The notes under the pieces were generated by a model that saw only the letters and a program-made list of their open reading frames with translations, had not been told where the DNA came from and did no database searches. Positions 17,641 to 64,000 of a DNA stretch of 64,000 bases are shown piece by piece (position 1 is the first letter of the stretch; each line of letters starts with the position of its first letter). The stretch is taken from NCBI GenBank assembly GCA_021818475.1, contig JAKADZ010000002.1:64536-128535 (forward strand), given 5' to 3'. This DNA comes from Nanobdellota archaeon. GTDB taxonomy: Archaea; Nanobdellota; Nanobdellia; Pacearchaeales; GW2011-AR1. The translations under genes and the position numbers were made by a program.

Positions 17641-17755
17641 TTTCTATCACCTCTTTTTCAGTCGAATTTAAAATATTAATAATTCTCACAGATTTTTCTC
17701 CAGTAATAATTTTTATCAGAAATTCTCCAGAGGATGGGCGGGTGGGAACGAGTTG
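17641..17755 (+). repeat. modular intergenic repeat, copy (A motif ... G-run module)
   Basis: ctatcacctcttttt at 17644-17658. About 50 nt are near-identical to 20543-20600 (tatcacctctttttca-n-tgaatttaaaatattaataa). gggcgggtggg at 17736-17746. Confidence 0.8.
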
Positions 17756-17779
17756 AAACAGAAAATAAATTAATTTAAA

Positions 17780-18391
17780 TTAAATCTCAAAAATCTTTTC
17801 CTTTCTTGCAACATTGATTACCTTTGTTTTTCCCATATATTCCTCCATACCTGCAGCTTCATGGATATGGGCAGTGATTAAAATATCCGGCTGAAATTCT
17901 TTTATTGCTTTAGTAACTGCCTTGCTTCCTGGAATTCCTGAAAATTCTGCCTTGCTTCCTTCAGGATGCATATGCGTAACCATAATCTGCTTTGGAGAAT
18001 TTTTAACAGTCTCGTGTCCTTTTTTTAATAAACTAAAAATTTCAGAATCTTTGATGGTGTTAATCCCCACATCAGCAGCACCTGCTCCGAAAATTCCCAG
18101 GTCATCTTTAAGAAAAGAATAACCGTGAATGTTTTTTGTATCCGGGTACATTTCTGCAAGAAAATCTGCCGTTGCGACAGACTCGTGATTTCCTGGAATC
18201 AAAAGGACCTGCTTCTTAGCTTTTACAAAGGGCCCGATTAAATTTTTAGTAGACTGCTCTGCAAAAGTTATATCTCCCGCTAAAATTACTAAGTCCACAT
18301 TTTCCTTCACTGCTTTTTCAGCAAGTTTCTTAACCAGTCCGGTATCTCCATGGATATCTCCTATCGCAAGTATTTTTGTTTTCTTTGACAT
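17780..18391 (-). CDS. metallophosphoesterase (calcineurin-like, YfcE/MJ0936-type)
   Basis: 203 aa with the motifs ILAIGDIHGD, LVILAGDITF, GNHE and MVTHMHP. Confidence 0.85.
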   Translation of the reverse strand: MSKKTKILAIGDIHGDTGLVKKLAEKAVKENVDLVILAGDITFAEQSTKNLIGPFVKAKKQVLLIPGNHESVATADFLAEMYPDTKNIHGYSFLKDDLGIFGAGAADVGINTIKDSEIFSLLKKGHETVKNSPKQIMVTHMHPEGSKAEFSGIPGSKAVTKAIKEFQPDILITAHIHEAAGMEEYMGKTKVINVARKEKIFEI

Positions 18392-18569
18392 AAAATTAAT
18401 AATATTCCTCCATTAATAAATATAAGTTCCGATTTAAATTTCGGGGATTTTTAAATATATTTTCTTATATCCATGCTACAAAAGATTTAAAAGTAAACTA
18501 CTATCTGAATATATACAATGAGAAGAAACTTTCCAAATAAGGGATTTTCTAACTCATTTTATAAATAAA

Positions 18570-18836
18570 ATGAAAGATAACTTTGACGTGTTTTTCCGAA
18601 GAAAACCCGCTTTGATGCTGGTTTCTTTGAAAAGAAATACACGAATAAGGTATGGTAGTGTTCTGGCTAAAGAAGTGGATTGCACTTACAGCCATGCAGT
18701 AAAAATACTGCAGACATTGGAAGACCTGAAGTTAGTTTTTTTCGAGAAAAAGGGGCGGATAAAGGTGATACAACTAACTAAGAAAGGCCGAGCAGTTGCA
18801 GACGCGATAGAAAATATCCAGCAGCTGATTAAGTAA
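18570..18836 (+). CDS. winged-helix transcriptional regulator (88 aa)
   Basis: RYGSVLAKEVDCTYSHAVKILQTLEDLKLVFFEKKGRIKVIQLTKKG shows the wHTH recognition-helix plus wing pattern. Confidence 0.65.
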   Translation: MKDNFDVFFRRKPALMLVSLKRNTRIRYGSVLAKEVDCTYSHAVKILQTLEDLKLVFFEKKGRIKVIQLTKKGRAVADAIENIQQLIK

Positions 18837-18875
18837 TTCAACTACCGCCCAGGATTGAAAGAGAATTAAACAATA

Positions 18876-19484
18876 TTAGAGTTTATTTTTTATTTTGAAA
18901 TAAAAAATAAAACTAACTAAAGTTATAAAGAATAATACAATCGAGATAAGGTTTAATGAATTATAATTAATAGAAATAACATTTCCAGTAATTCTTGATT
19001 GTATCATTACTATTGTAATCAGCCCCCCTAATGCAAAAGTTAATAAAAAATTTGCTTTTCTTTTCTTCTTCTTTTGTGCAGTTGCCAGTAATGCTCCCAA
19101 ACCCGTCAATCCTCCGGCAGTTGCGAGAATTCCGGAAGTCTCTAACCTTTTAGCACTTTTTACCTCATATCTTTTTTCTAATCTTTGCCTCTCTTGATTT
19201 GGACTATTGAGATATTTCTCATATTGATTATACATTTTCATGTATTCTTCAAATTTCTCCGGACTTTCTTTTTGTAGATTTTGAAATTCATCTAAAGACA
19301 TGGGTTGATTTAATTCTTTCTCAATTTTTGCAAGGCTATAAGAAAGTTGTGGGGGTTGTTCTATTTCATTTATTCTATCCTGACTATATTTTGTCACCCC
19401 TGCTCCTCCGATAATCGCTGCTAAAGTTGTCGCTATTCCAAGATTTCTTAAAGTTTTGTGTACACCTCTTTTTTTCTTAACCAT
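18876..19484 (-). CDS. membrane protein, hypothetical (202 aa)
   Basis: N-terminal TM, a central coiled region and C-terminal TM helices. No motif recognised. Confidence 0.5.
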   Translation of the reverse strand: MVKKKRGVHKTLRNLGIATTLAAIIGGAGVTKYSQDRINEIEQPPQLSYSLAKIEKELNQPMSLDEFQNLQKESPEKFEEYMKMYNQYEKYLNSPNQERQRLEKRYEVKSAKRLETSGILATAGGLTGLGALLATAQKKKKRKANFLLTFALGGLITIVMIQSRITGNVISINYNSLNLISIVLFFITLVSFIFYFKIKNKL

Positions 19485-62094: not shown

Positions 62095-62100
62095 CAAAAA

Positions 62101-62110
62101 TTTTTAAAAT
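62101..62110 (+). promoter_or_regulatory. TATA-box-like element upstream of alaS
   Basis: tttttaaaat lies 20-29 nt upstream of the ATG at 62130. Confidence 0.35.
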
Positions 62111-62129
62111 ACTTCTTCCTGAATTTTGT

Positions 62130-63827
62130 ATGGACAGAAAAGAATTAATAAAAAAATTCATTGATTTTTTCAAATCAAAGGGGCACAGGGAAATTCAGAA
62201 TTCCAGTCTGATTCCGGAAAATGATCCAACTGTTCTGTTTACAACTGCAGGAATGCATCCTCTTGTCCCATATCTCCTTGGCCAAAAACATCCCCAGGGA
62301 AAACTTTTGGTAAATGTTCAGAAATGCGTCAGAACAGATGATATAGATGAAGTCGGAGATGAAACACACCACACATTTTTTGAGATGATGGGGGATTGGA
62401 GTCTTGGAGATTATTTTAAGGAGGGGGCAATTACGAACTCATTTGAATTTCTGACTAAAATATTAAAAATCCCGAAAGAGAAAATTTCAGTAACTTGTTT
62501 TGAGGGGGATAAAGATGCCCCAAGAGATGATGAATCTGCAGAAATCTGGAAAAAATTAAGTATAAACAAAATAAAATTCCTCCCAAAAAAAGATAACTGG
62601 TGGGGGCCGGCAGGAAAAACAGGACCTTGCGGGCCTGATACAGAAATGTTTGTGAACAATGTTGAAATATGGAATGATGTTTTCATGCAGTACAATAAAA
62701 CCGAAGAAGGAAAATTCTCCCCTCTCGCTCAAAAAAATGTTGATACCGGAATGGGTGTTGAAAGAACACTTGCAATTCTTAATAAGTTAGATGATAATTA
62801 TCTTACAGACTGTTTTCTTCCGATAATAAATTCAATTGAAAAGGAATCAGACAAAACATACGGAAAAAATGAAAAAGATACAAAGGCAATGAGAATTATT
62901 GCAGACCACATTAAAGCATCAATTTTTATTTTGGGAGACGGGATTGTCCCTGGAAATAAAGAGCAAGGCTACATTTTAAGAAGATTGATAAGAAGAGCAA
63001 TACGGTACGCAAAAGATTTAGGGGAAAAATTTTCCGTTGAGGAAGTAGCAAAACCAGTTTTTGAAATTTACTCGGACTATGAACATTTAAAGAAAAATAA
63101 AAATAAGATTCTGGATGAATTAAAGAGGGAAGAAATTAAATTTCTGGAGACTCTTGAAAAAGGGATGAATATCTTCGAAAAATTAACAAAGGGCAAAAAA
63201 GAAATTGACTGCAAAGATGCTTTCCTTTTATATCAGAGTTATGGATTTCCTGTAGAAATGATTGAAGAAGAATGCAAAAAAAGGAAGATAAAATTCTCTA
63301 TAGAAAAATTTGAAAAAGAGTGCAAAGTTCATCAGGAACTTTCACGGACAGCAACTGCAGGAAAATTTAAATCAGGCCTGGCAGATGAATCATTGCAAAC
63401 AACAAAATTGCACACTGCTTCGCATTTGCTTTTAGCAGCATTAAGAATCGTATTAAAAGATAAAGAAATTATTCAAAAAGGAAGTAATATAACTCCGGAG
63501 AGATTAAGATTGGATTTTAATTTCCCGAGAAAACTTACCGATGAAGAAATCAAAAAAACAGAAGATTTAGTTAATAAGCAAATTCAAAAATCTTGTGAAG
63601 TTATAAGGCAGGAAATGCCAATCAAAGAAGCAAAAGAAAAAGGAGCAAGGGGTTCATTTGATTCAAAATACGGAGAAAATGTTTCAGTTTATACGGTAGA
63701 AGATTTCTCCAAAGAGATTTGCGCAGGCCCTCATGTAAAAAATACTTGTGAACTTGGACATTTCAAAATATTAAAAGAAGAATCTTCTTCATCAGGAGTC
63801 AGGAGAATTAAAGCAGTTGTGGAATAA
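62130..63827 (+). CDS. alaS: alanine--tRNA ligase, compact bacterial-like form (no C-Ala domain)
   Basis: 565 aa. FFKSKGHREIQNSSLIPENDPTVLFTTAGMHPLVPY, QKCVRTDDIDEVGDETHHTFFEMMGDWSLGDYFK, GPCGPDTEMF, VDTGMGVERT and RIIADHIKA. Editing-site HTASHLL and CAGPHV. Ends GVRRIKAVVE. Confidence 0.88.
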   Translation: MDRKELIKKFIDFFKSKGHREIQNSSLIPENDPTVLFTTAGMHPLVPYLLGQKHPQGKLLVNVQKCVRTDDIDEVGDETHHTFFEMMGDWSLGDYFKEGAITNSFEFLTKILKIPKEKISVTCFEGDKDAPRDDESAEIWKKLSINKIKFLPKKDNWWGPAGKTGPCGPDTEMFVNNVEIWNDVFMQYNKTEEGKFSPLAQKNVDTGMGVERTLAILNKLDDNYLTDCFLPIINSIEKESDKTYGKNEKDTKAMRIIADHIKASIFILGDGIVPGNKEQGYILRRLIRRAIRYAKDLGEKFSVEEVAKPVFEIYSDYEHLKKNKNKILDELKREEIKFLETLEKGMNIFEKLTKGKKEIDCKDAFLLYQSYGFPVEMIEEECKKRKIKFSIEKFEKECKVHQELSRTATAGKFKSGLADESLQTTKLHTASHLLLAALRIVLKDKEIIQKGSNITPERLRLDFNFPRKLTDEEIKKTEDLVNKQIQKSCEVIRQEMPIKEAKEKGARGSFDSKYGENVSVYTVEDFSKEICAGPHVKNTCELGHFKILKEESSSSGVRRIKAVVE

Positions 63828-63836
63828 TATTAGTTT

Positions 63837-64000
63837 TTATCAATTCTTTTTGGGTTGGGTTAAACTTAAGGTTAAAGCCCGCCAGAATTTACTTCATTAA
63901 CAATTTTTCTCGGAAATTTTTTCTTCACGCGAACTAAGTGAGTGTGCGACGGAAAATTCCTGTTTCCAGTCTTCGAAGGCAGGAAAAATTTTATTAATCC
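63837..64000 (+). repeat. modular intergenic repeat, copy (A-motif variant, attaacaattttt module, GC modules), cut by the window end
   Basis: ttatcaattcttttt at 63837-63851, 10 nt after the alaS stop. cattaacaatttttctc. cacgcgaactaagtgagtgtgcgacgg. Inverted repeat ttcctg...caggaa. Confidence 0.7.

Follow-up and report, generated by a model that had tools for sequence, protein, structure and literature searches.

Why does one short motif, TTATCACCTCTTTTT, recur directly behind the stop codons of genes such as cdc48, gatB and alaS? The question is raised by a stretch of 64,000 nucleotides (nt) from a Nanobdellota archaeon (assembly GCA_021818475.1, contig JAKADZ010000002.1, positions 64,536 to 128,535; C5:64536-128535 in the contig numbering used here), the whole of which we refer to as the window. 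The window belongs to a DPANN-like genome of ~0.7 Mb (G000 in our set), represented by a 698-kb assembly of nine contigs with 33% G+C and an estimated completeness of 86%, in which archaeal genes such as the three just named are found. An original prediction, made from the window alone, had proposed that the motif is part of a shared terminator or 3′-untranslated region (3′-UTR) cassette and a mimic of the 3′ tail of the 16S rRNA, but also that it behaves as the 5′ module of an oriented repeat. Our analysis favours the repeat: the motif is probably the head box, A, of a genus-restricted interspersed repeat that we call the A-B unit, and its proximity to stop codons would be a by-product of spacer size. 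Genes (810 in the whole genome, which is 90% coding) were called by a simple scheme based on open reading frames (ORFs) and hexamers, and the distances to gene ends given below depend on these calls.

When up to two mismatches were allowed, TTATCACCTCTTTTT had eight matches in the window, all of them on the plus strand (Table 1), compared to 0.77 on average and at most 4 in the shuffled window. Six copies start 1-26 nt past a plus-strand stop codon. The six plus-strand genes reported to carry the motif just past their stops, including cdc48, gatB and alaS, were thus found again at the same positions, and the gap lengths agreed as well, save that each had been given one base too long. The seventh copy was correctly described as not lying behind a plus-strand gene, but it starts at 1022 instead of 1021; it is located 74 nt off the start of the minus-strand gene 507-947. 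The eighth match, at 32480, is a chance match. The identities of cdc48, gatB and alaS are backed by Pfam, whereas a Pfam search with the ORFs ending at 17617, 20541 and 53320 gave no match, which leaves these three less certain as genes.

Genome-wide, the motif occurs in 21 exact copies and in 38 copies with at most one mismatch, 25 of which are on the plus and 13 on the minus strand. The reported lack of reverse-complement copies therefore holds true for the window but not for the genome, the 13 minus-strand copies being located on other contigs. In a census relative to the stop codons of both strands, 37 of the 38 copies were intergenic despite the high coding density, and only about half (20/37) come after a co-oriented gene. 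In the remaining half, the motif faces a gene start on the other strand, always at a distance of at least 44 nt. The motif is present at ~20 of ~758 gene ends (<3%). Since a run of five T (T5) is found within 30 nt past the stop in only 29% of the genes, and CACCTC precedes the first T5 run (within ~40 nt of the stop) at six gene ends only, the motif is not the usual gene-end signal of this genome.

The depth of repeated-sequence BLAST matches rises abruptly at the motif, which is followed by another conserved block, B, in ~28 of 37 copies. Both blocks are parts of an A-B unit of ~70 nt, composed of TTATCACCTCTTTTT, a variable stretch of 15-45 nt, and (TTATC)AGTTGAAC-N4-CGCGTTAAA-N8-ATTAAC. 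A clean form of this unit, TTATCACCTCTTTTT-N15-(TTATC)AGTTGAAC-N4-CGCGTTAAA-N8-ATTAACTAATTTC, is present in two other species of the genus. In an alignment of 15 units from three species, the A columns were invariant, the B blocks conserved and the spacer between them variable. Furthermore, in the genome under study the A-B unit carries additional GC-rich hairpin modules, nested within it and on either side of it, and this nesting is directly visible when the unit at C6:86.6 kb is compared with its orthologous counterpart in the congener G006. The BLAST depth, the B block and the alignment support the view that the motif forms the 5′ (head) part of a modular, oriented repeat and is no generic terminator. 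About nine copies of A are solo copies, one of which lies within a convergent spacer of 25 nt (C6:9276).

The motif strand of the unit is rich in pyrimidines (T 41%, C 18%). A T5-T7 tract was found in 37 of the 38 motif copies and a T4 tract in the remaining one. We searched for complete units with a sequence-only covariance model, R1, which was built from three unit-rich genomes (our own, G006 and G007); the 32 units that it detected in our genome contain 65 runs of at least five T as opposed to 6 runs of at least five A. A structured RNA was rejected, as the RNAalifold consensus of the 15-unit alignment contained 0 base pairs and Rfam had no match for the unit, neither at gathering score nor at E-values up to 1. 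A hairpin formed with upstream purine runs was also rejected, the duplex energies being no better than those of random windows or ordinary gene ends (p=0.19, 0.38). A few copies do pair upstream, namely the window copy at 1022, the copy at C6:25123 and two variants that read CACCCC and have GGGG upstream of them. A spacing of 984 nt between motif pairs, seen twice on C7, proved to be a coincidence with unrelated interiors.

The proximity of the motif to stop codons is to be expected from the spacers in which the unit resides. Without a unit, the median spacer measures 17 nt between convergent and 32 nt between tandem genes; with a unit, the medians are 212 and 292 nt, respectively. Since the unit-free spacers are tiny and the unit with its nested modules effectively forms the spacer, the motif would come to adjoin a stop codon. 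Of the 32 units, 11 lie in convergent spacers, 10 in tandem spacers with the unit anti-oriented, 9 in tandem spacers with the unit co-oriented, and 1 in a divergent spacer. For comparison, the spacers that measure 60 nt or more number 46 convergent, 169 tandem and 75 divergent ones. Convergent spacers are thus enriched and divergent spacers depleted (1/31 units versus 26% of the background). Unit-bearing spacers contain at least one gene 3′ end, and promoter-only spacers are avoided. As the tandem spacers indicate, the orientation of the unit shows no bias towards that of the genes beside it. Many bacterial interspersed repeats likewise favour convergent spacers and avoid promoter-only ones. 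An apparent rule, by which a gene 3′ end would always be found on the B side, was discarded as a trivial outcome of the convergent enrichment and divergent depletion.

The distribution among relatives is patchy. R1, which may miss diverged relatives, matched 32 times in our genome, 11 times in G006, 10 times in G007 and twice each in G003 and G013, whereas each of 56 other relatives had 0-1 matches; outside the genus there were only four weak matches with E-values of ~0.001-0.01. Counts of the exact motif followed the same pattern across the genomes. At the orthologous cdc48 end, the motif was absent from 12 congeners. The closest relative by cdc48 identity is G003, and in G007 a motif lies ~110 nt away from the cdc48 end in the opposite orientation. 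A further comparison was possible at the spacer C3 38912|38937, which in our genome separates two conserved genes by merely 25 nt and is filled with a unit in G006, G003 and G007. In this spacer the unit is anti-oriented to the genes in G006 and G003 and co-oriented in G007, which points to repeated independent insertion or inversion at one spacer. Additional unit sites are common to our genome and G006 or G003, with the same orientation. Because orthologous sites are found both filled and empty while others are shared, the unit behaves like an interspersed repeat that is gained and lost and of which some copies persist for a long time.

In the scenario that we propose, an unstructured, pyrimidine-rich A-B unit of ~70 nt would have increased in copy number in a small number of species within a single DPANN genus, and in the present genome it would have been further invaded by the GC-rich hairpin modules. 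As the unit sits in spacers with at least one gene 3′ end, its head would fall within a few bases of the available stop codon. Termination of a transcript at the T tract would then be a by-product of the location of the unit and not the reason for its presence.

Several observations weigh against this scenario. In three composites examined there are no terminal inverted repeats, and a flanking direct repeat that could represent a target-site duplication was found in only 1/37 copies, the one at 17644. The Y1 transposase (PF01797) had no match in our 86% complete genome, in a search that covered this transposase family and no other. Moreover, the A block is near-invariant over copies and species beside a freely varying spacer; because of this, A seems to be under selection in each copy, unlike the decaying copies of a mobile element. 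The conservation of the A and B boxes beside a free spacer therefore suggests that a sequence-specific reader, either protein or RNA, is likely to recognise them. The solo A copies, including the one at C6:9276, fit a stand-alone function. Finally, individual motif-to-gene distances may be off, given the home-made gene caller.

A possible link to Y1 transposases of the IS200/IS605 type was rejected. Such genes do occur in congeners (three in G007, on C77, C26 and C63, and one in G009, on C22), but they are solo copies without mutual nucleotide similarity, and none of them adjoins a motif.

Table 1. Motif copies, units and associated repeats in the window (positions of the window; R1 and nhmmer matches in contig coordinates).
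Feature	Position	Strand	Remarks
Motif A copy CTATCACCTCTTTTT, 1 mismatch	1022..1036	+	Heads unit 1023-1140 (R1 match C5:65558-65675)
Left copy of 19-nt direct repeat (1 mismatch)	17613..17631		Right copy at 17773-17791
Motif A copy, 1 mismatch	17644..17658	+	26 nt past stop at 17617; followed by TATA-like spacer and B block
B block TTTTTCTCCAGTAATAATTTTT; its unit has the 17644 motif as head	17675..17719	+	nhmmer match C5:82210-82254
Motif A copy, exact	20543..20557	+	1 nt past stop of ORF 20266-20541; B block at ~20582-20614
A-B unit with exact A motif at 27408-27422	27408..27471	+	3 nt past cdc48 stop (27404); R1 match C5:91943-92006
2-mismatch match, not a family member	32480..32494	+	In first codons (MKKEGI) of minus-strand gene 30330-32498
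A-B unit with exact A motif at 44229-44243	44229..44318	+	9 nt past gatB stop (44219); R1 match C5:108764-108853
A-B unit with A motif TTATCGCCTCTTTTT at 53326-53340	53326..53402	+	5 nt past end of small ORF (53320); R1 match C5:117861-117937
Variant A motif TTATCAATTCTTTTT at 63837-63851 with B block at 63867-63913	63837..63913	+	9 nt past alaS stop (63827); B block is the best nhmmer B match (C5:128402-128448)

Two of the window copies illustrate how repeat modules make up a spacer. The spacer from the cdc48 stop to the stop of a TYW3-like gene (27560) measures 155 nt and consists entirely of repeat modules. At 17644, the motif opens a composite that is flanked by the 19-nt direct repeat listed in Table 1. 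This repeat duplicates the last codons and the stop of the metallophosphoesterase gene 17780-18391 on the minus strand, and its left copy, a decayed duplicate, fills most of the 26 nt that separate the motif from the stop at 17617. The composite looks like an insertion that left the end of the metallophosphoesterase gene intact. As a separate observation on one of the genes that precede a unit, the alanyl-tRNA synthetase encoded at 62130-63827 comprises 565 amino acids only. It stops directly past the tRNA_SAD domain and appears to be without the usual C-terminal part.

Could the motif instead be a dedicated terminator or 3′-UTR cassette that is selected at gene ends, with the T tract stopping the transcript and TTATCACCTC serving as an auxiliary termination or processing signal? 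We consider this unlikely. The transcription terminators of archaea consist of U tracts that lack a hairpin and frequently come in pairs (PMC7515710), and the T5-T7 tract in which the motif ends corresponds to this known signal, so that the oligo-T part of the original prediction stands. The ~2 runs of at least five T per unit, on one strand only, resemble the double U-tract terminators of Methanococcus (PMC7515710). Consistent with a role at gene ends, nine copies lie within 16 nt of a co-oriented stop, divergent spacers are depleted of the unit, and the solo copy at C6:9276 is squeezed into a convergent spacer. However, so few gene ends carry the motif, and CACCTC precedes so few first T5 tracts, that it can hardly be the organising principle of gene ends as had been proposed. 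The near-absence of the unit from most congeners, including the orthologous cdc48 ends, is also at odds with such a cassette. The lack of a sense preference in tandem spacers, where anti-oriented units are as frequent as co-oriented ones, argues against a dedicated terminator, and the orientation of the unit tracks the contig, not the gene. This does not preclude an effect on transcripts: because archaeal U-tract terminators are known (PMC7515710), the T5-T7 tract of A, with the T tracts of B adding to its effect, would most likely stop the upstream transcript in the co-oriented copies, which make up about half of the copies genome-wide and 6/7 in the window.

The orientation of the unit along the contigs deserves separate consideration. 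The numbers of units on the plus and minus strands (+:-) were 9:0 on C5, 5:0 on C4, 4:0 on C3, 5:0 on C6, 0:3 on C7, 0:2 on C8 and 1:3 on C2. Hence, 31/32 units are in the majority orientation of their own contig, the product of the per-contig two-sided probabilities being 1.5e-7. This uniformity spans contigs of more than 100 kb whatever the direction of the genes, and it is much stronger than that known for the bacterial BIME and BOX repeats. Gene strands are balanced on C5 and C4; five contigs have a gene-strand bias, and on each of these most genes lie on the strand opposite to the T-rich strand of the unit. The sole orc1/cdc6 gene is situated at ~10-11 kb on C7, and all units of this contig lie to its right on the minus strand. 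In G006 the polarity is weaker (5:2 on C1 and 3:0 on C2). The contig polarity is real and strong.

Two kinds of data bear on the cause of this polarity. The T-A skew at third codon positions, corrected for gene orientation, is significantly non-zero and of constant sign along each contig (±0.03-0.17); it ranges from -0.17 on C3 to +0.12 on C8 with a bootstrap standard deviation of ~0.015, and it is a probable signature of the replication strand in a DPANN genome. This skew agrees with the unit orientation on 5/7 contigs. On the other hand, spacers without units showed no matching T5/A5 asymmetry in our genome. The idea that the polarity is a by-product of strand composition was discarded, as neither the unit-free spacers nor the third-codon skews match it. 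Since the unit orientation follows the contig, it probably reflects a chromosome-scale or replication-related polarity.

A chromosome-polar host signal would account for such an arrangement, and yet we regard it as quite unlikely. The unit would in that case act as a one-way stop for head-on RNA polymerases, or as a polar site for a replication, segregation or recombination protein; it would have proliferated as a repeat in some DPANN species, its T-tract strand being set against the presumed direction of replication. The near-uniform orientation within contigs, independent of gene direction, is in line with this, as are the placement of the T-rich strand opposite the majority gene strand on the five biased contigs, the position of all C7 units on one side of orc1/cdc6 and against the presumed fork direction, the near-confinement of T tracts to one strand (65 vs 6), the conservation of both blocks in each copy beside a drifting spacer, and the polarity of G006. 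However, the direction of replication was guessed from gene-strand bias, skew and cdc6 position, and the skew matches on only five of the seven contigs. A host signal would be expected throughout the genus, yet most congeners have 0-2 copies; the unit-free spacers do not share the polarity; and with an assembly of nine contigs no switch of orientation at an origin or terminus is observable.

The claimed likeness to the 16S rRNA tail could be assessed with congeners. The only 16S rRNA gene of our assembly (C2:45661-46468) runs off the contig end, covering model positions 4-828 with the 3′ half missing, and five 16S genes of the same genus end in GGAUCACCUCCUA or GGAUUACCUCCUA. The motif and these congener tails have the 8 nt AUCACCUC in common, after which the motif continues with UUUUU and the rRNA with CU. 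The identity that had been predicted therefore holds for these congeners, but it is limited to 8 nt and leaves the CCUCC core incomplete (CCUCU in the motif). The 8-mer ATCACCTC occurs 36 times in the genome compared to 6.8 expected occurrences; 27 of the 36 are within an A context, and the remaining 9 are close to chance level.

It is very unlikely that RNAs ending in ...AUCACCUCUUUU-3′ compete for Shine-Dalgarno (SD) sites or engage factors that act on the 16S tail. A transcript stopped at the T tract would indeed carry the motif at its very 3′ end, and the identity to the same-genus tails and the enrichment of the 8-mer in the motif context only also speak for such a role. However, the CCUCC core is broken and the genes of this archaeon are mostly leaderless: a TATA box is found at -29..-22 of the ATG, the best match of the GAAAAATTTATAAA (BRE/TATA) matrix lies exactly 35 nt before the ATG in 267/599 genes, and GGAGG is present upstream of only 33/704 genes. 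With the matrix of our own genome, a forward promoter-like site at the right upstream distance was detected for only ~4/37 copies. One copy in two runs antisense to the genes on either side, no conserved hairpin adjoins the motif, and upstream pairing is not enriched (p=0.19). Co-variation was not apparent either: the two congeners with the C-to-U variant GGAUUACCUCC in their 16S tail (G002 and G004) show no matching TTATTACCTC family, but with one copy of each motif form the numbers are too small to be telling. A promoter inside the unit was rejected as well, there being no consistent forward match, while some reverse matches are the T tract of the motif read backwards. The 8-nt identity with the 16S tail thus appears as a likeness with no demonstrated function, and the proposed rRNA-tail mimic was not borne out. 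Had the motif been a shared terminator that mimics the 16S tail, it would have represented a novel mechanism at the RNA level, but this reading is not supported by the evidence.

The opposite strand hardly offers an explanation either, since a function of AAAAAGAGGTGATAA as an SD site or part of a promoter for reverse transcripts would agree with the perfect 8-nt SD in the reverse complement and with a reverse TATA-like box (>6 bits in our own matrix) 20-45 nt inside the unit of 15/37 copies, which would place a start near the motif end, but is highly improbable in view of the single copy among 38 in which a long ORF (>41 amino acids) starts within 14 nt, inside a GC-rich repeat module, of the different make-up of the genuine SD-plus-start in the window (AAGGAGGTGATTAG-ATA-ATG), of the many TATA-like matches that are the T tract of the motif and the following AAA read backwards, and of the promoters at leaderless distance that the neighbouring genes facing away have of their own. 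An SD site for a minus-strand gene was accordingly rejected, with 37/38 copies having no usable start codon or ORF past the reverse complement.

The SD-like arrangement of the window itself was found in two 100% identical 39-nt copies of TCTTTTTCTTTTTAGCTGCCATTATCTAATCACCTCCTT, at 14254-14292 and 14452-14490. On the minus strand, these copies comprise a perfect SD (AAGGAGGTGATTAG), ATA, and the ATG of the lysine-rich mini-ORFs MAAKKKKKK* and MAAKKKKTAKKKKK*. They also contain the only ATCACCTCC strings in the window.

Apparently, the A-B unit is an archaeal interspersed repeat that has so far not been described. Its unusual traits are that it is unstructured, that its boxes remain invariant while the spacer drifts, and that it points in one direction over contigs of more than 100 kb. 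If the polarity is linked to replication, the unit would provide a sequence-only readout of replication direction in uncultured DPANN genomes, and would suggest that archaea have either a polar host signal or a route of single-strand insertion. For annotators, the practical consequence is that these motifs should not be called terminators or small-RNA genes unless transcript data are at hand.

How, then, does the unit compare to known systems? It shares with archaeal oligo-U or aCPSF1-assisted terminators, as mapped by Term-seq in Methanococcus, Methanosarcina, Sulfolobus and Haloferax (PMC7515710), a T5-T7-type tract that does not require a hairpin and is often doubled, and a location in the spacer just past a stop. 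These terminators, however, are oriented with the gene and have no conserved 10-nt box ahead of the T tract, whereas the unit is oriented with the contig and present at <3% of gene ends; it possesses a run of at least five T but lacks the downstream, co-oriented placement. Small RNAs with C/U-rich anti-SD seeds also carry a pyrimidine stretch identical to part of the 16S tail, but in contrast to these, the unit has no detectable promoter, flanking hairpin or independent transcription unit, and its host is mostly leaderless.

Other close parallels are found among repeats. Like BIMEs (REP plus other motifs) of enterobacteria and the BOX elements (boxA-boxB-boxC) of Streptococcus pneumoniae (PMC3049150), the A-B unit is short, multi-copy, modular and confined to spacers, lies mostly beside gene 3′ ends, and shows variable module combinations and lineage-specific copy numbers. 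REP and BOX modules are palindromic or hairpin-forming, while the A-B unit is without predicted pairing and its host is a DPANN archaeon. In general terms, the unit displays the multi-copy state, intergenic location, lineage-specific copy number and presence/absence polymorphism at orthologous sites that are typical of MITE-, REP-, BIME- and BOX-type repeats, but neither terminal inverted repeats with target duplication nor a palindromic hairpin. Elements of the IS200/IS605 family, and non-autonomous forms derived from them, are inserted in single-stranded form into the lagging-strand template (PMC5027513, PMC6006769, PMC3971601). They are strand-specific and devoid of inverted termini, as is the unit; they cause no target duplication, and their orientation is tied to replication and not to genes, the unit orientation being likewise independent of genes. 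Yet these elements need subterminal hairpins and a Y1 transposase, whereas the A-B unit has no hairpin and its genome no Y1 match. Failing the defining features of oligo-U terminators, of BIME and BOX repeats and of IS200/IS605 elements alike, the A-B unit is classed here as a variant of the interspersed-repeat kind.

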